From: Schmidtea polychroa
Lineage: Eukaryota
NCBI GenBank assembly: GCA_044892525.1
Contig: CM097885.1
Coordinates: forward strand, 39,184,001 to 39,248,000
Length of the DNA: 64,000 bases
Direction: 5' to 3'
This document shows positions 2 to 59,094 of this stretch, piece after piece. A program made the translations under genes and the position numbers. The notes below the pieces were generated by a model. It was not told the DNA's origin and ran no database searches. It was given only the letters and a program-made list of their open reading frames with translations. How positions within the stretch are numbered: the first letter of the stretch is position 1; each line of letters starts with the position of its first letter.

Positions 2-3000
2 GGATTATGCGGATACTATCGCAAATTTATCAAAAATTATGCAGGAATTGCAAAACCAATCCAGGAATTAGTAAAGAAGGACATTTCGTTCATTTGGGGG
101 AAGGAACAACAAGAGGCGTTCGAAACGCTGAGAGATAAACTAATCGAAGCACCTATCCTCGTACACCCAGATTTTAAGAAGCCATTTCTATTGGCAACGG
201 ATGCAAGCGGGTACGCGGCAGGCGCGATTCTGGGACAATTAGATGATGAAGGAAAAGAGAGAGTAATCGGGTATTACAGTCGAACATTCAAAAAGCACGA
301 AAAGAACTATTCGGTAACAGAACGGGAAGCATTGGCTATAATACAAGCTATCAAACACTTCCGATACTTACTATGGGGACATGAGATATGTATAACCACA
401 GATCATCAACCATTAGTGTGGTTAGGGCAACATAAAGAAGCGTCCAGTAGACTGATGAGATGGGCCATGCAATTGCAAGAATACTCCCCATTTATAAAAT
501 TCAAAGCGGGAAGAGCAAATGCCAACGCCGATTGTATGTCAAGATTTATTTTCCCAGATTTGGTGGATTCAGAAATGCAACGCATATGCTTAATAGTAGC
601 GGAAGATTTGGATTTCTGTCAACTGCGAAAGGACCAACAAGAGGACGCGGAATTAAAACAAATTATCGATTATGTAAAAACCGGAAAGACAGATGTATAT
701 GCGAAAGACCAAAAATTAAAAGAACATATGGATAAACACCGACACCGATATATTATAGAGAAAGATTGGTTGCTGATAATGGATGGGGAAAAACGATTAA
801 TGTGTATACCGGAAAACCGACGAAAAGAGTTACTAACGCAATATCACGATGGGAGATTGGGAGGACATATGTCATCGAAAAAGACGTTAGCAAGAATGAA
901 ACAGAAATATTTTTGGCCTACGTTAACTGAAGATGTAACCGAATGGGTAAAAAATTGTCTAACTTGTGCAACCAGGAAGAATACTGGATCGAAATGGAAA
1001 GCACCTTTAACGCCAATGCCAGTACCAATAGAACCAATGACAATGATATCCATGGACGTAGTTGGTCCACTACCAGAGTCAGATAAAGGAAACGTTTACA
1101 TTCTAGTGATCACAGACTTTCTTACGAAATTCCCAGAAGCATTCGCGATGCCAGACCAAAAAGCTAAAACAATCGCAAAAATTTTGGTAGAAGAGATATG
1201 TTGCCGATATGGAACACCAAAACAAATCTTAACCGATCAGGGAACTAATTTTATGAGTGAGATAATGAGCGAAGTAACAAATTACTTCAAAATAGCAAAA
1301 CTAAGAACATCTCCATACCACCCTCAAACCAATGGGATGACGGAAAGATTTAATGGAACACTTATACAAATGTTATCAAACTACGTCGACCGTCACCAAC
1401 GAGATTGGGACGAATATATAAACCTATGTCTTATGGCATACAGAATGTCGATTCACGCATCAACGAAAATGAGCCCATTCAAATTAATGTACGGAAGAGA
1501 GTGTAATATGCCAATGGACCTGGAATACCAACCACCGATATCGCAGTATATGGAGATCGATGATTATGTTACGAAATTCAAGGAAAGAATGCAAGAGATT
1601 TGGGAAACTGCGGGATTAAATATCAAGTTCTACCAGGAAAGTTATAAAGATTTACACGATCGAAAGAAAAACGTGAAGCAACATACGTTTCAAACAGGTG
1701 ATTGGGTAATGATAGAAACCCCGGAATTAATTCCAGGAACCACAAAAAAGTTACAACGCAACGGAAAAGGACCATATGAGATCTTATTCGTAGGCGAAAC
1801 TAATGTAAGAGTGAAATTGGTAAATAACCCCTTTACCAGGCCAATATACGTAAACGTGGCACGATGCAAATCAATTCCAAAAACAGCCACTAGTCAACCA
1901 GAAGGCCGTACATTAACCACACGTTCGCAAACCTACAGAATGAACATGATGCAACAACTCGCAGAACCGATCACTGGACGATTAGGTATCCAACCATCAG
2001 AAGCGGAAAAGATTGTAAAAGAGGTAAAAATTAAAATACCTGGATGGGCAAAAGATCGATTAGATTTCGAAATATTAGGAGGATTATTGACGATGATCGA
2101 GAACTATGCAAATAGAGAAAGGACACACCCATTATTGCGAGTAGTCAAAAGCCAATGGCCAATATTATTTACCATAACAGATCATTACGGAGACACACCA
2201 TTACACAAACTCATGAAAGTAGGTAACAACGAGCAAATACTAGAAACAATAGAAGCATTTCACGACTGCAAGCGATCAACAGAACAAACAAACAACCAAG
2301 GTTACACACCATTAATGATAGCCGCAAACAGAGGCAAAACAAAAGACGTTATAACCGCATTACTCGATACTGGATCGAAAATAACTACACAAGACCACGA
2401 GCGGAAAAACGCTCTATATCATGCTATCGAAGGGAGAAGTACCGAGGCGTTCACGTCATTGATGGAACTACTATCATATGAGGACAATCGAGAAGTCGGA
2501 AACATGTATGATGGATTATTAACAGCGATCAAAGAGAAACTGACAACAATTACCGGAATATTAATTACATGGAGAAATCCAATTCAAAACGATTATATGA
2601 TCAACGTAAACGAAGCGTTCACGAGAGGAGAGAACACGCTGATGAGAGAAGCTATGAAAGGACATCATTTATTCGAAATCCCGAATCAATTACTAGAACG
2701 AGGGATAAAATTCACAAATCACAAAGATGAACAGTTAACAAAAAAGCGAATCGACACATTCGAAAAATCACTATTCCAATTTACTAACCAAGTACGAAAT
2801 AAATATTGGGAAACGGTAAGTGTGTTATATATGATGGACACAATGAATAACATCCGCGAGAATTACCTGGATATTATCCAAATACTTACAGCAGAGGAAC
2901 GAATCAATAATCCAAACGGAAAGAAAACGAAAATAAGGTATGAGAAATCCAGGGAATCAAAGTCAACAACGAACCAAACGGTCACAAACAACGTCATCGA

Positions 3001-5158
3001 AACCAAATCAATGAGTATAGATCAAGAGGCAATAATACGCAAAGCAAAAGAAGTGTTCTTTGAGGAAATGCTAGAGCTGCCAGACGAAATAATATTGTCC
3101 AAAATAATAAAAGCCGTACACACATACGCAAGAGATCAAACCACGGGTTTAGATATCGGGAAAATCAAAACCTTCTTGCCTCGAGCATTTACGATGGTAA
3201 CAAAGGATTCCAGAACACCTCTACAACAAGCAATACTAGCTGCAAAAGAGAATAGAGCAATAACGATCATGAGCATCCTTGGGGAGATGGGCGAGGAAAC
3301 CAACACGAAAAATGAACAAGGTGAAACCGCCATGATGTATGCAGCTATAACGAAAATACACCCAAAAACACTCCACATCCTACATCAATCAGGATCGAAA
3401 CTAGACGAAAGGTCCAATGAAGGAAATTCCACCTTGGACTGGGCAACCATACAGCCAAACTTAGAAATGATCAGATTTATTTGCAAAAATGCGACAAAGG
3501 AAGAAGTTGAAAACATGTGCAAAGACACATCTCAGTTTCAATGGAATACGATACGGAAAAATCTAGAAGCAATGAAATTATTATTAACCTGGAGAGTACC
3601 ACAAAATAATAAATATGCGATAAATGTAAACGAATTCTACGAAAACGGAGAAAATGCGATGGTAAAGAACACCCTAACTAAGGGGGGGACGCCTAAAATT
3701 ATTTTAATAGTATTAAATAGAGAAGACCTAAAATTCACGCAAAATCAGAACGAGCAACAACGAATTGGGAAACATCGTCGCATGCAATTGAGAGAGTTAG
3801 TTAAAGAATGGAATAGAAAGAGACATGCTGCAACGGGTAGAAAAGAGTTTGAATTCGAAGCAAAATTAGCAAGAAACAGAGTGCTAACAGCATATCGCAG
3901 ATTATTGAACGATATAAATGTCGAGGACGACATTTTAAACGACAGCGGGGGAGATAAAAACGATGACAATGACGGAAAAGGCCGAAAGGAGGATAAAGGG
4001 AAAAGAGAACCGGAAGAGGATAAACCGGAAAACAAGGATTTGGATACGAAAAGAGAGGGAAACAGGCCGGGAACCAAGACCAAAGAGGAGGAAAAATCGA
4101 ATAATGGAAAACAGAGGGTATGCCTACCTTTCACTAACAAAGAAATAGAGACAAATATGATATTAATGATAATTATGCTTACCATGATAGAGTTAGTAAC
4201 AGCTCAGGGAGGGACGAGAACGATAAAAGAAACCAAAGAAGCGGAGAATCAAGATAGCAAAGAGGATGAACTAAAGCAAGAAAAGAAAAAGCAAGCACAA
4301 GAGCAGCAGTGGGATTTAAAGGAAGAATGGGACTTAAAGGAAAGGTGCATACTAGGAAGATGCATGTCTAGAGCGTATCAGAAACTAGTACTGATAAATG
4401 AGGACACAGAACCAATAACAGAAGTAAGAATACAAGAAGCATACCGAAATCGAGACGGGAAGAGAATAACGAACGTTAAAGGAAAAGAGGTACACCTAGG
4501 AAAAGGTGGTGAAGTAGTAATAACGCAGCTCCAACCTAGAAGAGAGCACAAAGTCTGTATTTCAAGATTAGGACCAGGTGAGAGATGCCATCAATATGTG
4601 ACGCAGCAGCAGCCGCCGAAAGAATACACGGTTTGTATCTGGAGGAATGAATCAAAAAGAGAATGCCGACGATACCCAGGGAAAAGAGGAAAGAAAAGAA
4701 AAAACCACGACGAAAAGAACGAAGGAGGAAAGCACAAGAAAACCGGCGAGGAAGCTCAGGACAACTATGTTTCGGAGGAAGAGATGGAAAAAATACAAAA
4801 GATGGCAAAGGATGGTATGAACGAGGAAATAGCAAGAATACGGGAAATGATGAAAGGAAATGGCAAAAGAGGAAACGAGAAAGGTATAGAAGCGATATCA
4901 ACATTAACGAACAAGGAGAAACCAGAGAATATAAGCGTGAAGCAGATGATGTGGATCAGTGGGATAATAATAACAGGGGCCTTCCTAATCATAACGGGGG
5001 GAACAATAAAAATAATCAAAGATAAACGACATCGCGGAGAACTAGAGATGACCCGAATCAGAAATTTCCAACATCGAGTGAAACGACCAAGTGATATCAA
5101 ACAAGAACAGTGGGTGGAGGCCTGGAACGCTCAGCGCCCTCCAAACTCACGTATATAG
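2..5158 (+). CDS. pol: Pol polyprotein (5'-partial): RT thumb/connection, RNase H, integrase, ankyrin modules, membrane-anchored tail
   Basis: Frame is open from nt 2 (GLCGYYRKFIKNYAGIAKP...PFLLATDAS). RNase H: TDAS...EREALAI...TDHQPL. Integrase HHCC: HDGRLGGH...CLTC. Integrase core: MDVVGP...TDQGTNF...ERFN. GPF/Y-like: GDWVMI...GPYEI. No stop until 5158. Confidence 0.96.
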   Translation, partial: GLCGYYRKFIKNYAGIAKPIQELVKKDISFIWGKEQQEAFETLRDKLIEAPILVHPDFKKPFLLATDASGYAAGAILGQLDDEGKERVIGYYSRTFKKHEKNYSVTEREALAIIQAIKHFRYLLWGHEICITTDHQPLVWLGQHKEASSRLMRWAMQLQEYSPFIKFKAGRANANADCMSRFIFPDLVDSEMQRICLIVAEDLDFCQLRKDQQEDAELKQIIDYVKTGKTDVYAKDQKLKEHMDKHRHRYIIEKDWLLIMDGEKRLMCIPENRRKELLTQYHDGRLGGHMSSKKTLARMKQKYFWPTLTEDVTEWVKNCLTCATRKNTGSKWKAPLTPMPVPIEPMTMISMDVVGPLPESDKGNVYILVITDFLTKFPEAFAMPDQKAKTIAKILVEEICCRYGTPKQILTDQGTNFMSEIMSEVTNYFKIAKLRTSPYHPQTNGMTERFNGTLIQMLSNYVDRHQRDWDEYINLCLMAYRMSIHASTKMSPFKLMYGRECNMPMDLEYQPPISQYMEIDDYVTKFKERMQEIWETAGLNIKFYQESYKDLHDRKKNVKQHTFQTGDWVMIETPELIPGTTKKLQRNGKGPYEILFVGETNVRVKLVNNPFTRPIYVNVARCKSIPKTATSQPEGRTLTTRSQTYRMNMMQQLAEPITGRLGIQPSEAEKIVKEVKIKIPGWAKDRLDFEILGGLLTMIENYANRERTHPLLRVVKSQWPILFTITDHYGDTPLHKLMKVGNNEQILETIEAFHDCKRSTEQTNNQGYTPLMIAANRGKTKDVITALLDTGSKITTQDHERKNALYHAIEGRSTEAFTSLMELLSYEDNREVGNMYDGLLTAIKEKLTTITGILITWRNPIQNDYMINVNEAFTRGENTLMREAMKGHHLFEIPNQLLERGIKFTNHKDEQLTKKRIDTFEKSLFQFTNQVRNKYWETVSVLYMMDTMNNIRENYLDIIQILTAEERINNPNGKKTKIRYEKSRESKSTTNQTVTNNVIETKSMSIDQEAIIRKAKEVFFEEMLELPDEIILSKIIKAVHTYARDQTTGLDIGKIKTFLPRAFTMVTKDSRTPLQQAILAAKENRAITIMSILGEMGEETNTKNEQGETAMMYAAITKIHPKTLHILHQSGSKLDERSNEGNSTLDWATIQPNLEMIRFICKNATKEEVENMCKDTSQFQWNTIRKNLEAMKLLLTWRVPQNNKYAINVNEFYENGENAMVKNTLTKGGTPKIILIVLNREDLKFTQNQNEQQRIGKHRRMQLRELVKEWNRKRHAATGRKEFEFEAKLARNRVLTAYRRLLNDINVEDDILNDSGGDKNDDNDGKGRKEDKGKREPEEDKPENKDLDTKREGNRPGTKTKEEEKSNNGKQRVCLPFTNKEIETNMILMIIMLTMIELVTAQGGTRTIKETKEAENQDSKEDELKQEKKKQAQEQQWDLKEEWDLKERCILGRCMSRAYQKLVLINEDTEPITEVRIQEAYRNRDGKRITNVKGKEVHLGKGGEVVITQLQPRREHKVCISRLGPGERCHQYVTQQQPPKEYTVCIWRNESKRECRRYPGKRGKKRKNHDEKNEGGKHKKTGEEAQDNYVSEEEMEKIQKMAKDGMNEEIARIREMMKGNGKRGNEKGIEAISTLTNKEKPENISVKQMMWISGIIITGAFLIITGGTIKIIKDKRHRGELEMTRIRNFQHRVKRPSDIKQEQWVEAWNAQRPPNSRI
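2170..3770 (+). other. Two duplicated ankyrin-repeat modules within the pol ORF
   Basis: Ankyrin motifs GDTPLHKL, GYTPLMIAA, KNALYHAI, RTPLQQAI, GETAMMYAA, GNSTLDWA. Each module ends in a shared cap: TWRNPIQNDYMINVNE...GEN and TWRVPQNNKYAINVNE...GEN. Confidence 0.85.
4157..5158 (+). other. Env-like/type I membrane segment at the pol C-terminus
   Basis: In-frame signal-peptide-like MILMIIMLTMIELVTAQ at 4157, a Cys-containing ectodomain, TM-like MMWISGIIITGAFLIITGGTIKII (about 4946-5017) and a basic cytoplasmic tail. Confidence 0.6.
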
Positions 5159-5750: not shown

Positions 5751-7139
5751 ATGGATAAACGACAAAGAGAAGAGTTCAGAGAGATTGTCGAGCAAGTCCG
5801 AAAATCTACAACGATCAGAATACACAAACATGTTATGTGCGGAATATGTGAAAAGTTGTTAAAGGAACCTCACCAAACGCAATGTGGATGCAGAGTATGT
5901 AAAGAATGTATCAGTGAAGCAATAAAGAATAGACCACAGAGGTGCCCGGTGTGTAAAGAGACACTAATATCGAGTTTAGAAGACACTAACGAGGATAAAG
6001 CCGCAGTGAAAGACATGTTAAACACCAACCTGGGATGCAAAAATGCCCCATGCGAATGGAAAGGAGTAATATGGAAGGTAGTACAACATATGGGAGAATG
6101 TATGTACAGAATTGGCCAGTGTGAAAGGTGCCATAAAACCATTCGAGCAAGCGAAGAAAAAGAGCATCAAAGGCAGTGTGAGGAGAGATTAGAAAGATGT
6201 GAACACTGTGGAGAAATAGATACGTGGAAAAATCTCACCCTCAAACATCACAATGTCCAAGAGGAGAGAGTATGTGCAGAGTTCAGTGGGGAATGCCCAA
6301 ACGGATGTAACCAAGGGGAAATAATGAAGGTGGCACAGCATCTAAGGGAATGTGAAAAGAAAAGAATGACATGCGTACTAGGCAAATGGGGTTGTCAGAA
6401 ACTACTACACCGAGGGGAGTTACCACATCATTTAGTAGAAAATGCTTCAACCCACGCAGAAATGTGGTCGACTGCGTTACAAGAAAGCGAGGAGAAAGTA
6501 AAACAAATGGAGATAGAGATAGCATCGTTGAAAGTATTAGTCAAAGAACTACTAGAAGAAAGGGAAGCGTTCGAAGAAGCCCGAGCAAACATAAAGATGC
6601 AAATAAACCGAATAGAAATCAGTAATAATCAGGCCAAGGAGCTACATCAGAAAATACGGGAAATAAATCTAAATGAGATAACCCCAACAGCACCCTACAT
6701 ATGGAAGATTACGGGAGTAAAGGAAAGAATACGAAAAGCAAAAACCGGAGAAGAGACAAGAATAACAAGTCCTGCATTCCATTCTTGGAAAAATGGGTAC
6801 AAAATGAAAATGAAGATATATCCCAACGGGGACGGAACCGGATTAGACACACACTTTTCGATTTTCTTTCTGTTATGTAAAGGAGAATACGACGAAATAA
6901 TAGAGTGGCCGTTCCAGGCGAAAATCGATATTGCACTAATGAATGACCGAAACATCCACGAACAAAGCTTCAAGACAACTGGAAACCAAATGTGTTACCA
7001 GAGACCTACGGAAGAAGAAGGATCAGCAACAGGAGCACCTACGTTCATCCTACAACAAAAAGTAGAAGATATGGCAAGAAAGGGCACGGTGTATATCAAG
7101 ATGACCGTAAGGAAAGAGGAGAAGGGCAGAACGGAGTAA
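5751..7139 (+). CDS. TRAF: Intronless full-length TRAF-family protein (RING, TRAF zinc fingers, coiled coil, MATH), TRAF2/3-like
   Basis: RING CGIC...QTQCGCRVCKEC...CPVC; linker DKAAVKDM...CKNAPCEWKG; TRAF-type zinc fingers; MATH domain YIWKI...SPAF...GYKMKMKIYPNGDGTGLDTHFSIFFLLCKGEYDEIIEWPF. Confidence 0.95.
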   Translation: MDKRQREEFREIVEQVRKSTTIRIHKHVMCGICEKLLKEPHQTQCGCRVCKECISEAIKNRPQRCPVCKETLISSLEDTNEDKAAVKDMLNTNLGCKNAPCEWKGVIWKVVQHMGECMYRIGQCERCHKTIRASEEKEHQRQCEERLERCEHCGEIDTWKNLTLKHHNVQEERVCAEFSGECPNGCNQGEIMKVAQHLRECEKKRMTCVLGKWGCQKLLHRGELPHHLVENASTHAEMWSTALQESEEKVKQMEIEIASLKVLVKELLEEREAFEEARANIKMQINRIEISNNQAKELHQKIREINLNEITPTAPYIWKITGVKERIRKAKTGEETRITSPAFHSWKNGYKMKMKIYPNGDGTGLDTHFSIFFLLCKGEYDEIIEWPFQAKIDIALMNDRNIHEQSFKTTGNQMCYQRPTEEEGSATGAPTFILQQKVEDMARKGTVYIKMTVRKEEKGRTE

Positions 7140-9965: not shown

Positions 9966-10583
9966 CAGTTCATAAACTCTAACTCAAACATTGGTGATAT
10001 CATATGTAGAAACTTTTATTGTATATACAAACTATCACCTTAAGTGATACTTGCTTGGTCTTGATTTGACCTATATCTTAGAATAAAATTGTTTTATTAT
10101 TGTAATATAATTGTTTCGATATATCCTTTTTATGAATGCATGAAGTAAGATAACTATGCAATTGCGGGACGCAATTTTGATGGGTCCCCGAGTGATTTGT
10201 TGGGCTGAATCGAAGGGTAGTTGAGAAATTAGGGCAAACTTAACTAAAATAAAATAAAAAATAAAAACAAATAAATTGACAAACAAAATAGAATAAAACA
10301 TAAGAAAAACAATAATTAGAAAATAGGAATTAAAACAAAAAATATAAAGATGAGAAAAAATTAAAATAGGACAATAGAATGGCGGAAAACAACGTAAAAT
10401 ATAGTAAATAATAAGAAAATTAAGGAAAATAAATAAAAACATAATTTTAATAAAGAAAGTAAGAAGAAATAACTCAAAAACAAGGAAAATAAATTAAATT
10501 AATAAAATTAAGCGGTACTCAATTCTAATTGGTCCGCGCAAACAAAAAATTAATATATAAGCAGGCATTAAAAACATAACAAT

Positions 10584-10659
10584 TACTGTTAATCAACCAC
10601 CTCAATAGGTAAGCGAAATTTAAACAAAAATACTGTTAATCAACCACCTCAATAGGTAA
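10584..10659 (+). repeat. 29-bp direct repeat pair in the LTR (U3 enhancer-like)
   Basis: TACTGTTAATCAACCACCTCAATAGGTAA at 10584 and 10631; also present in the second LTR copy. Confidence 0.8.
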
Positions 10660-12633
10660 ATCTATTCTACGACAGAACAGAACTCCAGCAACTAACGCAC
10701 GATAACTCACGAGGACAATCCCAAGATTCAAGAGATTTTTACAGAACTAGACGATATTCGAGCATTAACTGATTCGACATAGTACCCTTTTCGACTCAGC
10801 CCATACTTGTATCAATCATTCAGTAAGGATTTTTGATTGCTTATTTTGAATTTTTAAGTAATGCGTATAGTTTAATAATATTTTTAATTTAAAAAATGGT
10901 TTTTCTTTTCGTTTGATTTTCGAATGCTTTACTTAAATTAATAATTTGCTTAATAATAAATGATTTGCTCGTTAAGAATTATTGATCTTTTATGAATTAA
11001 TTTGTATGAATTATTGGAGACTATTCAATTTTGCGAGAAACGTGGCGTTGAGATACTCTATGTCATGGTGTGAGGTGCCTTCGGGAGCTCCACCGGTGGA
11101 CATAGGGTATTTCAATCACGCAGCTAGATTGGGCCGAAATGTGAGGGCTTCTTCACGGGTCCAATTGCTGAAGGTGCGACTAAAAGCTATAGGTAAATGG
11201 TGGCAGAAAATTGATAGTCATGTAGTGATTGAAAACAAAGATATATAATAAAGGAATCGGAGAGTTTGGATGTATTCGCGCAGTGATTGAGGGTGTCGCA
11301 CTATCGTCTTCAAATATCGTTTTTGCTAAACCTAAAAATCTCTCTATCATCAATGTAGGTTGTGCGTCAAAAATTGTTCAAACCTTAATGAGGCTATCTG
11401 TGACATATCTTTGATGTTCATACCTTTCACTCAGAATCTGTTCCGACCAATTTTAGCCTATGACCTTTTGAACTATTATTCCGTTCACCTAAAAGTTCTC
11501 TTAAAGACATCGTTGCAAGGAAGCTCAAAGTAGATTGCTTCAGATAATTATTGGAATTATTCCAAATGACTGTTTACGGATAAATTGTAGAACTACGTAA
11601 AATAATTTATTATAGATAATTGTTAGAACTTCATAAAACGAGTTTGTTCCAATTAAAATTTTGAATTACATAAAATAATTTACTTCAATTAATTTTTTTT
11701 TGAATTATATAAAAATATTTACCTATAATCAATTATCATAATTACACGAACTATTGGCATCAAATAATTTAAAATGAAAAATGCAACCAATTCGAACCAA
11801 GAAAATATATTTCTTCAAGTTAACCGATAATCTTGTTAAATACAAAATTCCAGTATTACATGAGGTTGGCAATCCAGCAGAGATAGGAAAAAATCCTCCA
11901 GCACTTAGAGAGTAGATTGATAAACTAGGCTTGAGGAATTAGAGACGAAAAATCCACCCTTGGAGCAAGCAGTATCCAACATTTGCAATATAGATAATTT
12001 TAATTTTTCCAATAATCCGGTGAGAATTAGTAAATCATCACCATATGCCGTAGAATTGTGAGCGAATACGCGGTGGATAAAATTCTGAGAGAATGCCATC
12101 ATGCAAACATTCAACGCCTGCATTGGTAGTATAATTAAGCGGGTGAAAGCGCACCTGGCATGCGTCACCAGTTGCAGACTTACCTAATAGCCAAGTACAG
12201 TAGACAAAGTCACACACGCATCTACTCATGAAAAATTAGATCGAACATGCCAATTAAACTACCGACAGCTATCAGATTTCACCGCTTCGGATTAAGAGTC
12301 AATCACTGGGCTGACATTACCTTATCTACCCAGCAGGTATGATCGACTACTAGCTCACACTGATACCGTGCTCAGTTGTTATAAAGACACTAACATTTAA
12401 TGATAAACTCGATCATAATTATGAGTATTCTCTCGTTATTATCTTAGCATGAATGGCACCGAAATTATTTCATTTTTTGACATAGTTATCATTAATATTA
12501 GTATCGAATATTGTTAAATAAATATTATGTAAACCAGGTAAAACACATACGTGAGTAATTAAAGAAAATGAATAAACAATTAAAAATTTAAATAACCTTC
12601 CGTTTATCCTGTAGGAACTAATCAACAGGCATT

Positions 12634-13757
12634 ATGGACCCCTTTTCCATAGATAGTCACTCGACCCCAATATATGATACACTCAGTAAAAGCACTCGTA
12701 CGGGGGGAGAAGTCGACAATTTAAATCGATTCTCGGTAAACGTGAAATAATGACTCCAAGCGGATTAAATAAATAATCAGTTTCATCGACATAGAATTTC
12801 TCTCACAAACAGTAATATCTTCCTTTTCCTTGTGCGAAATCTGGGTTGATTGATTTATCTTCTTATAATTAAAGCCCCGAAAGGGTACGAGAATCCATCG
12901 CGTAGTAGAACTTGTCCTGACTGGTAAACCCTTATTTTTGTCTATGATCAGTACAGTATGAATGTAGTCAGGTGGTGACGCTCCCGCTGATTTAATTATT
13001 TTCATTTTCTTTTTCACAGTCGCTCAAAATGTTGCCAAATTCCAAGCCCGTTCTTCGACCTTGTTTTTCTTGCTCCGACAAGAATTCAATTATCAAAGAG
13101 CTCCAGGCCCAAATTGGCAAGCACAAAAGAAGGATAGATGAGTTAGAGGGGACATGGTTTAGTCCCACCCAGATGAAGGAGGCTCAGAAGAAGCTGCACC
13201 GAAGCGAGCACTGTAGAGACGCGTTGATTTCCGAGAGTCGGGCGCAGAGGAGCCTGATAAAAGAGCAGTCGGAGGCGCTGCACAAATTGTACGTCCAGGC
13301 CGCAACTACAAGGAAGATCGCGAAGATCCCGATTAACGAAGCCAGTAACCTTTTCCCAGCACATCATGATATCTCTGGAAAGTCCTGCCATGGGTGCGTA
13401 GAGACCGAGCTCTCACCTAAAGGACCAGAAATCATCTTTACCGGAACCAGTAAAGTGCTACCTGCGATAGCATCCACCTCAGCAGCACCCTCGACCAACC
13501 AAACAGCATCGAAGCCAAAGCGTCGACAATTATCGAGAGCAGAACGAAAGAAAAAACAGCGGGAACGCATAACCGCCAAACAGAACCAGCAATCGTCGGA
13601 TCATCCAATCAAAGTCATCAACCCCCCTGCAGCAATCGATTTAGCACCAGTGATCTCAGGGCGAATCATCTCCGCCGCTGGTGTTACCTGGGAGGAAAAC
13701 GCCTCTGAGTTTTTCGATTTGGAAGATCTATTGGCAGACTCGGAGTGGGAGAAATGA
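12634..13757 (+). CDS. LTR-encoded spliced gene (exons 12634-12735 and 13020-13757; 279 aa): CxxC, coiled coil, basic NLS-like segment, acidic tail
   Basis: 34-codon exon MDPFSID...NRFS ends at a GT donor (12736). A polypyrimidine TTTTCATTTTCTTTTTCACAG acceptor at 13019 joins it in frame (SLK) to the 242-aa ORF. Contains KPKRRQLSRAERKKKQRER and ends FFDLEDLLADSEWEK. Confidence 0.72.
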
Positions 13758-13891
13758 GAACTTCCCCGTAAAAAGTCTTCGTTCTCTGAATTGACCTGAA
13801 CATTGTCTGATAACATTTTACCTTGTCTCTTTTCCCGTTGTCGTGAACTTTATTGTATAGGTGTTAGATATATTTGTGTGATAATCTTAAT

Positions 13892-13897
13892 AATAAA
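13892..13897 (+). promoter_or_regulatory. Candidate polyadenylation signal in the LTR
   Basis: AATAAA 135 nt after the LTR ORF stop, followed by a GT/T-rich tract. Confidence 0.5.
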
Positions 13898-16800
13898 CCA
13901 TTTTTGTCTGCATACGTTCTTTTTGTGTTCATCTTAAGACAGTTGAGTTGAAATTGGTAAATGGTATTGAGAGTCATAAAATTATGAGGAGCATTAGTCA
14001 GTTGGTAAACTCAGCTAGAAATATTGCGATGGGGCGACGGAATGAGTAGACGTAAGTCCTTCTATCGGCAGTCAGGGTTGGGAAGTCGAGGCCTCAGTAA
14101 GGAGTAGTCCGAAGGAGCTGGCTCACCTGCTTACTGGCGTCTCGCCGGCATAGCACAGTTCCAACGTGAAGCAATTCACGGGTGCTATGTTGGAGTGTAA
14201 GTTATGTACGGGTCCCGCTCGGCGATGACCAAATAAATGACGGGCGAAATCGAGGTGGGCATTCATCCTCTAGACTAAAGCTGCACTAGAAAGGGGTCAT
14301 CCGAGTAGTGTACCCGCAACAACTGTAAAAATAAAAATTGTGGAACGTTCTGTGCTGTTCCGGGCTTTATTTTATTCGTAGGATTAACCTTTGAATATTA
14401 TTACAAGCGCTAAATTTTTGGGCGATTATACTAAAAATGTTTGGGGTATTTATATTAGATTTTTAAGCCAGATGTTATTTTAAAATAAATTATATTAATT
14501 TCTAGTGTTAAGAATTGTATTTCAAGTATGATCTTAAGAACAAATTATATTATTTTACCTAAAGAAATATTATTTTATTTTTATTTTCAGTTAATTCAAG
14601 AATACTTGAATTATTCTGACTAAAATTTTTCAGCTGTTTATTTATTAAAGAAATTTTACCTTTAATTAAAATTTATTGTTATTAATTTAAAATATTAAAT
14701 TAAAAATTATTAAAATATTTTCCCTTGTATAAAATTATATTGTAATCATTTATTAAAAAGTTAACTAATAAAATACTCAGTCTATTAAATATATACACCC
14801 GATAAAATATACATCATTAATCAGACAGTATTATACATAAATAATCAGACAGAAATTAATCAGAATAATAATAAAGGATAAAATATGCACAGATTGTTAG
14901 CTATTTCGAGGATAATGTTTGATCAATAATATTTACACAAATTAAATCGTTCAAGAATAATGTTTTGTTGAATTAACTTGAATTGATTGGATTGTTTCTG
15001 GATTGAATTGGGTTGCATGGAATTGGGTTGTTGATTGTTGGGAAATTAGATTGTCTATTTATCTACGCTCTTCGGTGTATACATTGACTCGGTATCTCTT
15101 GGGCCCTGTCCTATAATACCGGTTGAGGTTAAATGTGGTGATGTGCCTACCTTCATCATCCAACATACTTAATCTCCTTGAGTAACTCTGAGTTGTTATT
15201 GTCGTTCCCGACCAATATAAAACAATCTTTCATCACTATTACAATATATTACAAAACTACAGTAAACTTTATTGTCAAGTCACTGAAACATTATATTAAT
15301 AATACAGGATACTAATAATCAAAGGAATAGAAATTAGAACCCGGAACTTTAATAATATAAATAAGTATTATTGTCGACAAAGGTTCAAATATGCACTCCT
15401 CATCTGAGGCATTCATAACATTTGCATAGTATATTACTTCACTTTTTGGTGGTACTTCTTTGACAGATTCGTGTTTCATTATAATTTGAAATGAATTTAA
15501 AGTTTCAGTGACAGACGAGACCCATTAACTATTGACTGACTCATTTAATTTGTCTGTTTTCAGAAATCTATATGAAATCTATTGATCCTGTTAGCTTCCA
15601 CTGGCGTCATGAGAATCGCGGCGGGTTGGTCGAGAGTTTGAGTGGTCTGTGACTTGACAGCTCTGTGGCAACTGCTTGTTTGTCAAGGATGTGAGATTTA
15701 GAGACTGAAGGTTTATCTGTTTGATAATCTTGTTTTAATTAATTGTCGGGGTATTTTGAAACTTTAATTGAAAGTTTTTTACAGAAATTAAAACAACATT
15801 TCGATTTTCCTGGGTGTTCTTTACTATTGCTAATTTAATTTGATTTAATTAACAAATTAGGAGTGATGACACTAAAGCTTTTAGGGAAATTTTGCAAGTA
15901 GTTGCTGATATATCAATGATAGGTTAATTTGGTGTTGCTTTTTACTTGTTTTACCCGATTGCAAATAAAGTTCAAGTTATTTCAAAAGGTAATGATAGAC
16001 AATATTTATGAGAATCATTGGCTGATGGGTCTAAAAGTTAAGTATAATAGTTATAAACCAATTGCTAGAGGTTCTTAAGTCATTTTAAACATAAAAGAAG
16101 ATCAAATTAAATATCTGAATGAAAAGATCCAATCATCAACCTAGAATTATATTCTATTGACTAAAAGTATGCAACAAAAGCATCGGAAAGTTCTCCATTG
16201 ATGCAAATAATAAAAGAGAAAATTTATTTTCTAACAAAATTACTAAACTTCATACAATTCAAATTGAAAGAAATTAACGATGTTAAGATTAAGTTTCACA
16301 ATGCAAAATAAAGAAATAACCAAATACCAGATGATGAAACTACAGTAACAAAAGAGAAGGAAAGTGAAGAAACCGAAAGTAAATCGAAACTTGAATATTT
16401 GGATGATGACGATAAAAATATAAAGATTAAAAGGAAAAGAAAAGATGCTGGTGTAGAAGAGTTAAATAAAAATAACCCGATTTAGACAATAATCCAAAAT
16501 CGAAAAATATTAATTAATTTAATTATGTTTAAAAAGCCAAGAAAAAGCCTATTATCATTAAGTTTTAAGAAAAAATCCTTCATTGAAATTATGATAAAAT
16601 TATGTATGTCGAAAATTCAAATTTTTGTGTCAATTTGAATTCTTCTGTAAATCTAATCATATTTCTTGACCAGCCATTTCAACCTTATACCAAACTTTCA
16701 ACAGCTTTAGTTCACCTGATTGTAAAATTAAGTTTTGTAATCAGAATTCAAAATCTTATTTAATGGAGAGTTAGGTGAATAGAGAAAAATAAGTACATGC

Positions 16801-32975: not shown

Positions 32976-35900
32976 TGTTGGGCTGAATCGAAGGGTAGTT
33001 GAGAAATTAGGGCAAACTTAACTAAAATAAAATAAAAAATAAAAACAAATAAATTGACAAACAAAATAGAATAAAACATAAGAAAAACAATAATTAGAAA
33101 ATAGGAATTAAAACAAAAAATATAAAGATGAGAAAAAATTAAAATAGGACAATAGAATGGCGGAAAACAACGTAAAATATAGTAAATAATAAGAAAATTA
33201 AGGAAAATAAATAAAAACATAATTTTAATAAAGAAAGTAAGAAGAAATAACTCAAAAACAAGGAAAATAAATTAAATTAATAAAATTAAGCGGTACTCAA
33301 TTCTAATTGGTCCGCGCAAACAAAAAATTAATATATAAGCAGGCATTAAAAACATAACAATTACTGTTAATCAACCACCTCAATAGGTAAGCGAAATTTA
33401 AACAAAAATACTGTTAATCAACCACCTCAATAGGTAAATCTATTCTACGACAGAACAGAACTCCAGCAACTAACGCACGATAACTCACGAGGACAATCCC
33501 AAGATTCAAGAGATTTTTACAGAACTAGACGATATTCGAGCATTATCTGATTCGACATAGTACCCTTTTCGACTCAGCCCATACTTGTATCAATCATTCA
33601 GTAAGGATTTTTGATTGCTTATTTTGAATTTTTAAGTAATGCGTATAGTTTAATAATATTTTTAATTTAAAAAATGGTTTTTCTTTTCGTTTGATTTTCG
33701 AATGCTTTACTTAAATTAATAATTTGCTTAATAATAAATGATTTGCTCGTTAAGAATTATTGATCTTTTATGAATTAATTTGTATGAATTATTGGAGACT
33801 ATTCAATTTTGCGAGAAACGTGGCGTTGAGATACTCTATGTCATGGTGTGAGGTGCCTTCGGGAGCTCCACCGGTGGACATAGGGTATTTCAATCACGCA
33901 GCTAGATTGGGCCGAAATGTGAGGGCTTCTTCACGGGTCCAATTGCTGAAGGTGCGACTAAAAGCTATAGGTAAATGGTGGCAGAAAATTGATAGTCATG
34001 TAGTGATTGAAAACAAAGATATATAATAAAGGAATCGGAGAGTTTGGATGTATTCGCGCAGTGATTGAGGGTGTCGCACTATCGTCTTCAAATATCGTTT
34101 TTGCTAAACCTAAAAATCTCTCTATCATCAATGTAGGTTGTGCGTCAAAAATTGTTCAAACCTTAATGAGGCTATCTGTGACATATCTTTGATGTTCATA
34201 CCTTTCACTCAGAATCTGTTCCGACCAATTTTAGCCTATGACCTTTTGAACTATTATTCCGTTCACCTAAAAGTTCTCTTAAAGACATCGTTGCAAGGAA
34301 GCTCAAAGTAGATTGCTTCAGATAATTATTGGAATTATTCCAAATGACTGTTTACGGATAAATTGTAGAACTACGTAAAATAATTTATTATAGATAATTG
34401 TTAGGACTTCATAAAACGAGTTTGTTCCAAATAAAATTTTGAATTACATAAAATAATTTACTTCAATTTTTTTTTGAATTATATAAAAATATTTACATAT
34501 AATTAATTATCATAATTACACGAACTATTGGCATCAAATAATTTAAAAATGAAAAATGCAACTAACTCGAGCCAAGAAAAATATATTTCTTCAAGTTAAC
34601 CGAGGATCTTTTTAATTAAATAAAAAATTCCAGTATTTCATGGGGCTGGCAATCCAGCAGGGACAGGTAGAAATCCTCCAGCACTTAGAGAGTAGCTCGA
34701 TAAACTATGTTTGAGGAATTAGAGACGAAAAATCCACCCTTGGAGCAAGCAGTATCCAACATTTGCAATATAGATAATTTTAATTTTTCCAATAATCCGG
34801 TGAGAATTAGTAAATCATCACCATATGCCGTAGAATTGTGAGCGAATACGCGGTGGATAAAATTCTGAGAGAATGCCATCATGCAAACATTCAACGCCTG
34901 CATTGGTAGTATAATTAAGCGGGTGAAAGCGCACCTGGCATGCGTCACCAGTTGCAGACTTACCTAATAGCCAAGTACAGTAGACAAAGTCACACACGCA
35001 TCTACTCATGAAAAATTAGATCGAACATGCCAATTAAACTACCGATAGCTATCAGATTTCACCGCTTCGGATTAAGAGTCAATCACTGGGCTGACATTAC
35101 CTTATCTACCCAGCAGGTATGATCGACTACTAGCTCACACTGATACCGTGCTCAGTTGTTATAAAGACACTAACATTTAAGGATAAACTCGATCATAATT
35201 ATGAGTATTCTCTCGTTATTATCTTAGCATGAATGGCACCGAAATTATTTCATTTTTTGACATAGTTATCATTAATATTAGTATCGAATATTGTTAAATA
35301 AATATTATGTAAACCAGGTAAAACACATACGTGAGTAATTAAAGAAAATGAATAAACAATTAAAAATTTAAATAACCTTCCGTTTATCCTGTAGGAACTA
35401 ATCAACAGGCATTATGGACCCCTTTTCCATAGATAGTCACTCGACCCCAATATATGATACACTCAGTAAAAGCACTCGTACGGGGGGAGAAGTCGACAAT
35501 TTAAATCGATTCTCGGTAAACGTGAAATAATGACTCCAAGCGGATTAAATAAATAATCAGTTTCATCGACATAGAATTTCTCTCACAAATAGTAATATCT
35601 TCCTTTTCCTTGTGCGAAATCTGGGTTGATTGATTTATCTTCTTATAATTAAAGCCCCGAAAGGGTACGAGAATCCATCGCGTAGTAGAACTTGTCCTGA
35701 CTGGTAAACCCTTATTTTTGTCTATGATCAGTACAGTATGAATGTAGTCAGGTGGTGACGCTCCCGCTGATTTAATTATTTTCATTTTCTTTTTCACAGT
35801 CGCTCAAAATGTTGCCAAATTCCAAGCCCGTTCTTCGACCTTGTTTTTCTTGCTCCGACAAGAATTCAATTATCAAAGAGCTCCAGGCCCAAATTGGCAA

Positions 35901-37122
35901 GCACAAAAGAAGGATAGATGAGTTAGAGGGGACATGGTTTAGTCCCACCCAGATGAAGGAGGCTCAGAAGAAGCTGCACCGAAGCGAGCACTGTAGAGAC
36001 GCGTTGATTTCCGAGAGTCGGGCGCAGAGGAGCCTGATAAAAGAGCAGTCGGAGGCGCTGCACAAATTGTACGTCCAGGCCGCAACTACAAGGAAGATCG
36101 CGAAGATCCCGATTAACGAAGCCAGTAACCTTTTCCCAGCACATCATGATATCTCTGGCGGGTCTTCTTCTCCAGTCGGAAAGTCCTGCCATGGGTGCGT
36201 AGAGACCGAGCTCTCACCTAAAGGACCAGAAATCATCTTTACCGGAACCAGTAAAGTGCTACCTGCGATAGCATCCACCTCAGCAGCACCCTCGACCAAC
36301 CAAACAGCATCGAAGCCAAAGCGTCGACAATTATCGAGAGCAGAACGAAAGAAAAAACAGCGGGAACGCATAACCGCCAAACAGAACCAGCAATCGTCGG
36401 ATCATCCAATCAAAGTCATCAACCCCCCTGCAGCAATCGATTTAGCACCAGTGATCTCAAGGCGAATCATCTCCGCCGCTGGTGTTACCTGGGAGGAAAA
36501 CGCCTCTGAGTTTTTCGATTTGGAAGATCTATTGGCAGACTCGGAGTGGGAGAAATGAGAACTTCCCCGTAAAAAGTCTTCGTTCTCTGAATTGACCTGA
36601 ACATTGTCTGATAACATTTTACCTTGTCTCTTTTCCCGTTGTCGTGAACTTTATTGTATAGGTGTTAGATATATTTGTGTGATAATCTTAATAATAAACC
36701 ATTTTTGTCTGCATACGTTCTTTTTGTGTTCATCTTAAGACAGTTGAGTTGAAATTGGTAAATGGTATTGAGAGTCATAAAATTATGAGGAGCATTAGTC
36801 AGTTGGTAAACTCAGCTAGAAATATTGCGATGGGGCGACGGAATGAGTAGACGTAAGTCCTTCTATCGGCAGTCAGGGTTGGGAAGTCGAGGCCTCAGTA
36901 AGGAGTAGTCCGAAGGAGCTGGCTCACCTGCTTACTGGCGTCTCGCCGGCATAGCACAGTTCCAACGTGAAGCAATTCACGGGTGCTATGTTGGAGTGTA
37001 AGTTATGTACGGGTCCCGCTCGGCGATGACCAAATAAATGACGGGCGAAATCGAGGTGGGCATTCATCCTCTAGACTAAAGCTGCACTAGAAAGGGGTCA
37101 TCCGAGTAGTGTACCCGCAACA
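32976..37122 (+). mobile_element. Solo LTR (4147 bp) of the giant Gypsy family
   Basis: TGTTGGG...CCCGCAACA with a perfect 4-bp TSD TACT (32972-32975 and 37123-37126); near-identical to 10198-14321. Confidence 0.93.
35414..36558 (+). CDS. Second copy of the LTR-encoded spliced gene (exons 35414-35515 and 35800-36558; 286 aa)
   Basis: Same splice sites and an intact frame; differs from copy 1 by an in-frame 21-bp indel (GSSSPVG) and G-to-R near the C-terminus. Confidence 0.72.
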
Positions 37123-51960: not shown

Positions 51961-52588
51961 TTTAAAAGCAAATTACTTTCATTGCGTGCAAATAAAACAT
52001 ATAAACTGATAAAATAAATCATTAACAATGTATATATTTATTAAAAATATTAATTACAGTATCAAAAATGCACGATAAAGTATATTCAAACTTACGGAAA
52101 TAAAACGCAGTAATGATCATAAAAATATAAACAATTATTGCAACAAATTAAATTACACTTTATCATTAATGCCTTGAACGTTTGTCACAAAATTTCATAT
52201 TCATATTGTTTGATATATTACTTAATAGAAACAGTCAAAACATATTGTAAAATTAATAGAAATTTTTTCAGTCAGGCTGTCNNNNNNNNNNNNNNNNNNN
52301 NNNNNNNNNNNNNNNNNNNNNNNNNNNNNNNNNNNNNNNNNNNNNNNNNNNNNNNNNNNNNNNNNNNNNNNNNNNNNNNNNNNNNNNNNNNNNNNNNNNN
52401 NNNNNNNNNNNNNNNNNNNNNNNNNNNNNNNNNNNNNNNNNNNNNNNNNNNNNNNNNNNNNNTAATAAAACATGATTATACCGATCACCTACCCCATGAC
52501 TACCCGTCTATAACTATTCATAATAATATTATTTATATATATATATATATATATATATTACTTATAAATTTATAAATTAACCCTATAA

Positions 52589-52938
52589 TATCTTATATAC
52601 AATCCTTCATACTACTTATATATACTACTCATTAACCTGTATTTCGGATAAAAATTTATATCTTATATACAATCCTTCATACTACTTATATATACTACTC
52701 ATTAACCTGTATTTCGGATAAAAATTTATATCTTATATACAATCCTTCATACTACTTATATATACTACTCATTATCCTGTATTTCGGATAAAAATTTATA
52801 TCTTATATACAATCCTTCATACTACTTATATATACTACTCATTAACCTGTATTTCGGATAAAAATTTATATCTTATATACAATCCTTCATACTACTTATA
52901 CATACTATTCATTAACCGGTATTTCGGATAAAAATTTA
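52589..52938. repeat. Five tandem 70-bp units
   Basis: TATCTTATATACAATCCTTCATACTAC...GTATTTCGGATAAAAATTTA starts at 52589, 52659, 52729, 52799 and 52869. Confidence 0.92.
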
Positions 52939-54138
52939 TAATTTGTGATTTTATAAACAATCTATAATAATATTAGTGTATATATCATTCATAAAATTTA
53001 TTTTACGAATTCACCCTATAATATCCTATTTATAAATATTCGTCTTAATATTACTGAAATATACTATTTGTAAATATACACTTCTAAGGCATTATAAATT
53101 CCAATCACACCCCCATAATTTTTATAACAACTTATACACCTACACTTACATTTATACACTGATATATATACTACTTATAAAGGAGAATCATAAATTTCAT
53201 TCTGATAAATTACCCCCCCCCCTTCATATTCTCCCCTTACCTATATTACTATTTGAATGTATTATGAAAAAGGTACAATAAAAATTTCATAAATTGAAAA
53301 TCTGGGAAACCCCCCCCCCCTTTTTTTATTTATAATTCTATATATATCTATATCATATTATGTGCATATTACCTATAAATGACAATTTTAAAAAAACAAA
53401 ACCCCTTTATGATATGCTACATCGTTAGAATACAAAAACTATAAATTTCCAAGCTATAATTTTAGTTTATGAATATTTCTCACTTATTATAATTGTCTAT
53501 ATCTCTCACTAAAATAACAGATCAAATCATTAGGAAGATTTATTCATATCACATGGCGAAATAATTTGAGTTTGGATTGAGAATGCGTGGTTTTCCGTTC
53601 ACTGCCTGCGGGGTGGTCGTCTCCCCTTTGGGTGGCTTTAGGGAACTACAATGTGAATTGTAAGCACAGGTACTAAAGAAAATGGGCATTACCTTTTTGC
53701 TATTCCTCAGAAGGTCGAATACTCCTTTACCAGGTTTAGAGTTCCGATGTGAGTCGCTCGTAGGTTGACAGCCGTTGGCGTTTTCCGGCTGTGGTTTTCT
53801 TGGGTTGCTGGTTCTACAATTTATAAATTGACATTATTGCTTAGTTAAAATCTATTTTTAATTTAATTAATCAGATTGTTATATAAAATTAGTTTATAAA
53901 TCTTAAATTAATAAAATTTAAAATTGTTATATTTAAATCTCCATTTGAAACATTATAACAAACATAAATTAGAATAAATACATTAGGGAAGTTCCTTTCT
54001 TGAAGAATTATGGGAATATGATGGTGATTAGTATAGTCATTTAAATTTTTTTTTTCGACAAAGGTACGGAAACGCGTGAGGAGAAACTGGAAAATAATCA
54101 TATTTATTTGAAATGAAAAAAGAAAATATTTATTTAGA

Positions 54139-57801: not shown

Positions 57802-59094
57802 CAGGAATACCTCGAACAGTACGGTTAATCGGTTCTGGAATTTAGCCGTACTATTTGAAACCGGACTATTCGAGGCATTCTGGCGCTAATAAATTTACGG
57901 CTTAGTACCCCTATTAAGAAATTTAAAAATCGTGATTATAATCTAGTAAACAAAAAATATTTTGTTATGTATTTTTTTTCTGATATTCAAGAGCAAAACA
58001 ATCATATTTAACACAGTTGTACATTTAAATATATGTGAGACGATCTTTTTGAGATTTTATATCCCAGGCATGACTTCTCATTCACTGCTATGAAAGTGCG
58101 TGTTGCTAACTTTTTCCAGTATAACGCAGTCTCGTCTACATTGAATATTTGTTCGTCTTTGTAACCACCTTTTTCTATAATTCTGGATAATTCTTCTGGA
58201 TAGAATTTTAAAGCCGCCTCTTTATCTGCACTTGCAGATTCCCCACTTGCAAATACGTTGTGAATACCAGTTCGTTCCTTATACCGAGAAAACCACCCTC
58301 GACTGGCCGTAAAGGTTTCACCGGTTTCAGAACCAAGGTCTTCTACTTCATCCTCAGTCCCCAAGTCTTTGTAAAAATTTAGTGCCTTCGCTTGATTTTC
58401 CATTTGACTAATTGGAATACGTTTTTGGCTAAGGTGTTCTATCCATAAAGATAATAGTCGCTCTATGTTAACCATTCGAGAGCTTCCAATTTTCGTTACC
58501 ACTTTTGACAAACATGACGCCGTAGCTATACCTTGCGACTTGTATTGATCTTTCTTTTTCACAATTTTCCGAACTGACGCCTCGTTCATTCCCCTTTCTT
58601 TTCCTACTTTAGCAAACGAAGCCTCTTTGTCATGAAGTTTAATAACACTAAGCTTCTGTTTTAAAAGTGAGCCATTTGCATTTTATGGTTGTGGAGTCAC
58701 TTTTACACTTTGTTCTGCCACTCATTTTATTTTTAAAACTAAAATCTAAATATATAAAAGTCAACATACCTACAATTAAAAATATAAAACCAACAACTTT
58801 GATCTATTATCGCGCGATCGTGAATGTATCCATAGTGAATTTTTTTACGGTTTATTTATTCAATTTTTTATTGAAACTACAAACCAGAAATTAAACCTAA
58901 CAAAACAAATTATTAAACACGTGTCGTATGATTTTATAATAACGAATAAATTCTAAAAAATTAATTTTAAAAAACTTTTTTAAATTTCGAAAATATTATT
59001 AATTCATTTCAAAAACAATCATATTTTGAAAATTTCAAAATCGTACTATAGAGAAACCGTACTGATCGAAACCGTACTTTGCGAGGTATTCCTG
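57802..59094 (-). mobile_element. Tigger/pogo-type transposon, internally deleted
   Basis: TIRs CAGGAATACCTCG with TA TSDs; transposase remnant with HTH, FTASRGWFSRYKER and IFNVDETALYWK, truncated after the first D. Confidence 0.9.

Follow-up and report, generated by a model that had tools for sequence, protein, structure and literature searches.

Coding sequence within an LTR is known from sag, nef, and bel; these genes occupy U3, ahead of the promoter, and are expressed from the 3' LTR. Complex retroviruses are known to encode regulators of the Rev or Tat type, and so is one gypsy element, whose regulator is CERV. The Rev-like proteins (HIV Rev, HTLV Rex, and MMTV Rem) are described as having a basic helix and long coiled helices, as being made from spliced mRNA, and as having structured RNA in an intron or LTR region (PMC5568270). 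CERV is encoded by Cer1, a gypsy element of C. elegans; it is translated from a spliced mRNA, and export of the genomic RNA depends on it. CERV is described as a nuclear accessory protein that has conserved cysteines and an NLS, forms an oligomer, and requires a Ser-Pro site (PMC10309623). In the foamy virus LTR, the major splice donor is described as lying in R, upstream of the poly(A) signal, and U1 binding at this donor could inhibit 5'-LTR polyadenylation (PMC3694450).

The closest described element is Burro (GYPSM1) of planarians, which is about 30 kb long, with multi-kb LTRs and one giant polyprotein. This polyprotein is described as containing gag, CCHC knuckles, a protease preceded by an in-frame viral fusion protein, RT, RNase H, integrase, and ankyrin repeats, and TRAF/MATH cargo is described as well (PMC6431247).

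We analyzed a stretch of 64,000 nucleotides from Schmidtea polychroa (assembly GCA_044892525.1, contig CM097885.1, positions 39,184,001 to 39,248,000 of the forward strand), which we will call the window. Positions count from its first letter. The parts of the window that concern us first are:

2 to 5158, forward strand: 3' part of the element's polyprotein (RNase H, integrase, ankyrin repeats)
5751 to 7139, forward strand: TRAF-like accessory ORF (RING and MATH), with an AG one base ahead of its ATG
10198 to 14321, forward strand: 3' LTR of a ~30.3-kb Burro-type gypsy element (4124 bp; ends TGTTG...CAACA)
32976 to 37122, forward strand: solo LTR with the same cassette (4-bp target site duplication, TACT)
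35809 to 36558: ORF of the solo-LTR cassette

The partner of the 3' LTR, which is the element's 5' LTR, lies 26.2 kb upstream, beyond the window; each of these LTRs is 4.1 kb and the element is flanked by ACTG. We rejected the idea that the two copies in the window are the LTR pair of one element, as the first is a 3' LTR and the second is a solo LTR.

The element's interior encodes, in overlapping in-frame stretches, Retrotrans_gag, zf-CCHC, Monjiviricetes_fusion, RVP, RVT_1, RNase H, and rve, in that order. The interior also contains ankyrin repeats and accessory ORFs with RING and TRAF-like (TRAF/MATH) domains. Based on this layout (length, multi-kb LTRs, polyprotein order, and ankyrin and TRAF cargo), we assign it to the Burro-type giant gypsy elements, a kind of element that is already known. 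It shares the size, the LTR length, the polyprotein order, and the TRAF/MATH cargo with Burro as described, but here TRAF is a separate downstream ORF, unlike in that description (PMC6431247). The available parts of the Burro description make no mention of a gene inside the LTR, an intron, or an RNA hairpin, all of which we propose for the present LTR (PMC6431247). We found no paper on a gene inside Burro LTRs; the supplements of Grohme et al. 2018 and the Repbase entries may describe one.

Two side observations concern the interior. The accessory ORFs at 5751, 7334, and 8557 each have an AG 0-2 nt ahead of the ATG and an AATAAA past the stop codon. Behind the 5' LTR, at L091:4367-4395, there is a 7-nt spacer and then a GC-rich sequence resembling a primer site, presumably of the tRNA-Pro type; a RING-finger ORF follows, ahead of gag.

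We compared the window with other LTR copies in the genome. A DNA search, in which the best 40 of 975 candidates were scored, yielded 30 loci. A protein search, in which the best 150 of 7155 candidates were scored, yielded copies with 73-100% identity, and 136 of these 150 lacked stop codons. From the protein search we picked 60 loci by hand. Because we preferred stop-free copies, the intactness of the main ORF in this sample is biased, while dN/dS and the upstream features are unselected. Because the copies share ancestry and in some cases represent both LTRs of a single insertion, the counts below do not represent independent events. Matching 4-bp flanks were found at 21 of the 60 loci; one of these is a 5' LTR, which leaves about 20 solo LTRs. 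We also found homologs of the LTR protein at 39%, 34%, and 25% identity. The first of these is family B, of which we picked 20 copies from the best 150 scored, and the last is family C; we will call the window's own family A.

The initial annotation proposed a spliced protein-coding gene inside the LTR, in which 12634-12735 is joined in frame to 13020-13757 by a GT-AG intron. The features that bear on this gene are:

12634 to 12735, forward strand: the proposed first exon; an incidental open frame inside the intron that is neutral by its substitution, indel, and dN/dS data
13000 to 13019, forward strand: pyrimidine tract and YAG acceptor, 5-10 nt ahead of the ATG (90 of 90 loci)
13029 to 13757, forward strand: the LTR ORF, 242 amino acids in the window's 3' LTR (CxxC, helix-EGTWFSP-long helix, basic helix, acidic hydrophobic tail)

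The central claim, that the LTR contains a protein-coding gene, is borne out by the ORF from 13029 and the acceptor that feeds it. The ATG is found at the 13029 position in 89 of 90 loci, and the acceptor tract averages 16.4 pyrimidines out of 20 across the 90 loci. The dN/dS of the ORF is 0.12 (CI 0.07-0.21), versus 1.8-1.9 in the shifted frames. If the intron is read as codons, its dN/dS is 0.49, so the neutral baseline of the method is below 1. Across 77 unique copies, with 556 saturated pairs excluded, the dN/dS of the ORF stays at 0.12-0.19 over a range of dS from 0.05 to 1.5, and the first 110 residues are at 0.04-0.06. The conservation of the acceptor and the downstream ORF is far beyond chance. 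We conclude that the LTR gene is real, that it is under strong purifying selection, and that it starts at ATG 13029.

The proposed first exon is another matter. All the parts of the two-exon model are present (ATG 12634, GT 12736, AG 13019, and an open frame to the stop at 13757), but neither exon 1 nor its donor is conserved. Of the 30 youngest loci, 26 have an open two-exon frame, as expected if it were a functional gene, but the frame is open in just 2 of 20 intermediate loci and 0 of 40 diverged loci. Among the 20 intermediate loci, exon 1 has the same substitution rate as the intron (0.129 vs. 0.130, with the ORF at 0.056). Indels whose length is not a multiple of three are also as common in exon 1 as in the intron (13.8 vs. 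13.5 per kb in these loci). The main ORF is 247-249 amino acids long in 87 of 90 copies, in a sample that favors intact ORFs. The dN/dS comparison across LTR copies that had been suggested separates the two parts in the same way, with 1.34 for exon 1 (CI 0.6-5.0). Also, the distance from the acceptor to the ATG varies: it is 9 nt in 76 of the 90 loci, 10 in 8, 5 in 4, 8 in 1, and 7 in 1, and in 14 of 90 it cannot be divided by 3. In two elements, a one-base shift in this spacer, which is common to both LTRs, closes the two-exon frame while the ORF from 13029 remains open. Exon 1 evolves neutrally, and we consider it extremely unlikely that the two-exon CDS is the functional gene. Given the unconserved frame and the intron-like rates, we rejected the 34-codon first exon and its 12735/13020 junction.

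Two arguments that had been made for the two-exon gene from the window alone also carry little weight. It is true that the frame is open in both LTR copies, but these copies are ~99% identical (27 substitutions and 5 indels), so this is almost uninformative. The 21-bp in-frame indel, which had been taken as evidence of selection, turns out to be a deletion that the window's 3' LTR alone has: the 21 bp are present in the other 29 of the top 30 loci, including the element's own 5' LTR, which otherwise has no mismatches.

We also looked at RNA contigs from six runs for two LTR copies (X1, X5, X6, and X7 on one copy and X5, X6, X8, and X9 on the other). Among the joints listed, neither 12735/13020 nor a joint of the leader to the acceptor appears, and these contigs are uninformative on the point: X6 covers the intron as DNA would, and X5 runs 7-12 nt into it. 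A search of the genome for processed, intronless copies gave 9 pattern matches versus 8 in the control, and none of these had the ORF.

If exon 1 is not the start of the transcript, then what feeds the acceptor? Diverged copies of the LTR have just four blocks in common, at ~10198-10640, 11024-11185, the ORF, and 14048-14230. The blocks other than the ORF, and the sequences between them, contain these features:

10528 to 10560, forward strand: promoter-like block, ATTGG at 10528-10532 and TATATAA at 10554-10560 (53 of 60 full-length loci; 19 of 20 in family B)
10586 to 10608, forward strand: putative non-coding leader exon of ~22 nt without an ATG, its start placed ~30 nt behind the TATA
10609 to 10614, forward strand: splice donor AG|GTAAG, the likely true donor of the LTR gene (48 of 53 promoter-bearing loci; 15 of 19 in family B)
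10609 to 10655, forward strand: mini-intron-like unit of 47 nt whose 3' end repeats the leader, with a second GT next, in the window copy's subfamily
10955 to 10960, forward strand: AATAAA-1, with a U-rich tract downstream, the likely end of R (49 of 53 loci, 51-98 nt ahead of the hairpin described below)
11041 to 11170, forward strand: RNA double hairpin within the predicted intron (z = -6.1; 0 of 200 shuffles)
13892 to 13897, forward strand: AATAAA-2, the likely poly(A) signal of the gene (88 of 90 loci)
14052 to 14230, forward strand: terminal conserved block that opens with a donor-like GTAAGT (GACGTAAGT in 82 of 90 loci)

We take ATTGG to be a CCAAT box on the opposite strand and TATATAA to be a TATA box. 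From these motifs, transcription likely starts near 10586. None of 48 leaders contains an ATG. Of the five promoter-bearing loci that lack the donor, four have lost the repeated mini-intron. AATAAA-1 falls within a single 55-nt bin in 22 of 25 diverged copies, versus 11 for the next-best bin. The resulting order is promoter, 22-nt ATG-free leader, donor, AATAAA-1, double hairpin, acceptor, ORF, and AATAAA-2, and this order is conserved.

Family B, despite its 39% protein identity, repeats the layout of promoter, donor, acceptor, and AATAAA. Its acceptor directly abuts the ATG in 19 of 20 loci, its AATAAA lies in one bin in 19 of 20 (10 for the next bin), and the dN/dS of its ORF is 0.09. In family C, the acceptor is conserved, but a scan of 20 stretches revealed no promoter or hairpin of a comparable kind. 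(In one family B copy, L121, a reversed fragment of the family C ORF lies directly past the stop codon.)

The 13019 acceptor might instead be mainly a spliced-leader trans-splicing site at the end of an outron, with the LTR leader not joined to the gene. SL trans-splicing does occur in flatworms. The acceptor is 0-10 nt ahead of the ATG, as in the other accessory ORFs that end near AATAAA, which is an operon-like arrangement. But a trans-spliced gene would have no need for a strong donor behind an ATG-free leader, and this combination is conserved in two distant families. We consider trans-splicing to be an improbable account of the acceptor. The gene model alone, with an ORF from 13029 and an acceptor fed by the LTR's leader, seems to us very likely to be correct.

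We had considered other donors. The candidates at 12551 and 11190 were rejected because they are not conserved, and GTAAGT at 14052 was dropped as the donor of the leader once the upstream promoter and donor were found. This GTAAGT (14052-14057) is a perfect donor-like sequence 160 nt past AATAAA-2; it could suppress the AATAAA-2 site or act as a second donor. Folded as a single sequence, the terminal block at 14052-14230 has no significant structure (z = -1.0). Within 10583-10660, a second copy of the leader ends the 47-nt GT-AG unit, and several copies lack the unit exactly. This exact loss fits either a passage via spliced RNA or a deletion between direct repeats.

Based on the motifs, U3 likely spans 10198 to ~10585, R likely extends to ~10980, and the remaining 3.3 kb, with the gene, is likely U5. 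If AATAAA-1 is not used, then R would be long and would include the gene; in both cases, the gene is behind the promoter. We place the gene behind the promoter (likely in U5) and not in U3 because the 2.4-kb predicted intron contains AATAAA-1 and the hairpin. The analogy that had been drawn to sag, bel/tas, and nef as U3 genes breaks down here, since the conserved LTR promoter is 2.4 kb upstream of the gene, which also lies past the first conserved poly(A) signal. Unlike those genes, it is downstream of the promoter, so a 5' LTR or a solo LTR contains the entire cassette. The expectation that solo LTRs would carry the whole gene holds, as the promoter, leader, acceptor, ORF, and poly(A) signal (the AATAAA reported just past the gene, at 13892) are all within the LTR. 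Because solo LTRs retain the full cassette, this gene would be among the most numerous in the genome. The donor also lies upstream of an AATAAA in the foamy virus LTR, as described; the present LTR differs in adding a whole gene and a second AATAAA (PMC3694450).

The hairpin block is present in 55 of 60 loci. For covariation, we used 29 sequences (28 of the 55 loci and the window), in which 91% of the cells pair. Changes on both sides are seen in 15 of the 55 hairpin pairs, which was reached by none of 500 shuffles and by no slid control, although the slid control favors a structure that was derived from the window copy. G-U wobbles point to RNA of the forward strand. The only match in Rfam was a chance one to Xist_exon1, below the gathering score. 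In family B, a long hairpin at the equivalent place is the most stable window of the intron in 20 of 20 copies (z from -1.9 to -6.0), and 12 of its 27 pairs show compensatory changes (in 19 of the 20 copies; L121, which has a shortened hairpin, was excluded). Its internal loop has an invariant GGU/GGUG, and GGU and GGUG adjoin the outer stem in the hairpins of both families A and B. BLAST of the family A hairpin against the family B hairpin found no homology. Separately, almost every diverged copy retains a short motif at 11281-11292 (CAGTGATTGAG), whose sequence complements the base of the 3' arm of hairpin 1. This motif may serve in an alternative pairing or as a DNA site.

As the initial annotation noted, the protein has a CxxC, long helices, a basic stretch, and an acidic tail, features that resemble those of regulators. 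A structure model from 48 sequences (mean pLDDT 64.8, pTM 0.33) has helices at residues 15-39 and 46-98 (both confident), 170-187 (basic), and 231-238 (acidic), with disordered linkers. In the window's family, 12 of 25 residues in the basic stretch are K or R (6 R and 6 K). Since it is as lysine-rich as it is arginine-rich, it may be only an NLS. The acidic tail has a hydrophobic-x-x-hydrophobic-hydrophobic motif in 47 of 48 homologs. In a pattern scan, no leucine-rich NES of class 1a-c or 2 was common to even 10 of the 48 homologs, and patterns of class 1d and 3 were found only near residues 20-25, in 20 of 48. The C-terminal motif looks more like an activation or adaptor motif.

None of 48 members matched a Pfam family, and searches of PDB by sequence, by fold, and against viral folds gave nothing at E <= 0.001. 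A word-seeded search for homologs accepted 0 of 551 candidates, and a comparison to the Atlas gave a best score of 0.83 and no lead. Ten public proteins match the LTR protein, with E values from 2e-8 to 7e-4. These have in common a GTW-x-x-P turn and an E-x-R-x-Q-R helix, and most have a strongly arginine-rich motif behind it. All three families retain the basic motif. The cysteines of the CxxC are absent from family C and from the public homologs; Cys/His residues are conserved in families A and B. One of the ten public homologs has a match to Pfam's REV below the threshold (19.1 bits, with a cut-off of 22). Unrelated Pfam domains are attached to eight of the ten, which is what we would expect if an acceptor-bearing exon were caught in gene models. 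Gene models may thus be contaminated by the LTR gene.

We propose that the LTR gene, selected from ATG 13029 and likely expressed as a spliced mRNA made from the LTR alone, encodes a predicted RNA-binding regulator, similar in role to Rev or Tat, that would switch on the full-length RNA of the element. We give this proposal an even chance of being right. Transcription would begin near 10586, and splicing of 10608 to 13020 would remove AATAAA-1 and the hairpin and give a short early mRNA that ends near 13912. This short mRNA would be the default product, and any solo LTR could supply it. Because reverse transcription copies from the primer site back to R, the packaged genome would have to retain the 2.4-kb intron and to read through both poly(A) signals. 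We suppose that the basic helix would bind the intron-containing RNA, with the hairpin as the candidate site, that the long helices would oligomerize, and that the acidic hydrophobic tail would recruit host machinery, leading to read-through or to export of the unspliced RNA.

A basic helical protein from a spliced mRNA, together with a structured RNA that is present only in the unspliced form, has the logic of the Rev-like switches (PMC5568270) and of CERV (PMC10309623). Like the Rev-like proteins, the LTR protein has a basic helix and long helices that are probably coiled and is likely made from spliced mRNA, and the hairpin that covaries in two families may correspond to their structured RNA as described (PMC5568270). 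It differs from them, as they are described, in that it has no conserved leucine-rich NES or homology and in that both the gene and the hairpin are in the LTR, behind the promoter (PMC5568270). We do not class it as a Rev-like protein because we did not find a leucine-rich NES C-terminal to the basic motif. Like CERV as described, it belongs to the accessory genes of a gypsy-class element, with a spliced mRNA that in our case is only predicted, a putative NLS, and cysteines that are conserved in families A and B (PMC10309623). Also, the nearly invariant W-F-S-P of the LTR protein is a parallel, and only a parallel, to the Ser-Pro site described for CERV (PMC10309623). The LTR gene differs from CERV in lying wholly within the LTR, and we found no sequence link between the two. 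More broadly, searches by sequence and by fold found no similarity of the LTR protein to Rev, Tat, Tas, or CERV.

The same gene model could also encode a DNA-level transactivator of the LTR promoter, similar to Tas of foamy viruses, that has an NLS and uses its acidic tail for activation. The hairpin might equally be a packaging or host-export signal that is unrelated to the protein. Packaging signals of retroviruses lie just inside the intron, behind the major donor, which is where the hairpin is found. The hydrophobic motif of the acidic tail in 47 of 48 homologs, without a conserved NES, and the conserved Cys/His of families A and B would also suit a transactivator. On the other hand, arginine-dominated motifs like those of the public homologs are typical of RNA binding, and the cysteines are missing from family C and the public homologs. 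Also, the basic helix is behind the coiled segment by ~60 disordered residues, unlike in a bZIP protein. (We rejected bZIP because the long helices are ~70 residues ahead of the basic helix and because none of the 48 members has a bZIP match.) Overall, we consider a transactivator unlikely, but it is the strongest competitor to an RNA-binding regulator.

Another alternative is that the protein is nuclear cargo directed at the host, which would modulate chromatin, silencing, or signaling without any role at the element's RNA. Several accessory domains of host type (TRAF, RING, and ankyrin) are on the element (PMC6431247), and a position in the LTR gives the highest copy number. But we found no host homolog or family for this protein, and in two distant families the gene is linked to the LTR, where its signals follow an identical order. 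We consider host-directed cargo to be quite unlikely, although more likely than trans-splicing.

If the proposal of an RNA-binding regulator is true, then this would be an independent regulator with a candidate RNA target in the LTR, and it would show how giant elements evade splicing and early polyadenylation. A fuller version, which we put forward tentatively and think is more doubtful than the proposal itself, is that a gypsy-class element has a switch in the style of complex retroviruses that lies wholly within its LTR. The early spliced gene in U5 would encode a basic protein that acts on an intronic hairpin and controls either the read-through of two poly(A) sites or the export of the genome. 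Solo LTRs would form a genome-wide trans-acting pool for the whole family. The protein family would be an undescribed one that is also present in other animal genomes.

We made a few other observations about these LTRs and the window. The two LTR copies in the window differ mostly in or near a 300-nt patch (11627-11930 vs. 34405-34710), where 21 of the 27 substitutions and 4 of the 5 indels lie. Among young elements, this patch has two haplotypes that assort without regard to the ORF, suggesting that recombination takes place inside the LTR. Four LTRs (L041, L042, L060, and L063) are chimeric: their upstream part and their ORF half come from different subfamilies. Elsewhere in the window, an ORF on the reverse strand (58008-58682) encodes a DNA-binding domain of the Tc5/CENP-B transposase type, and a tandem array with a 70-bp period occupies 52518-53010.
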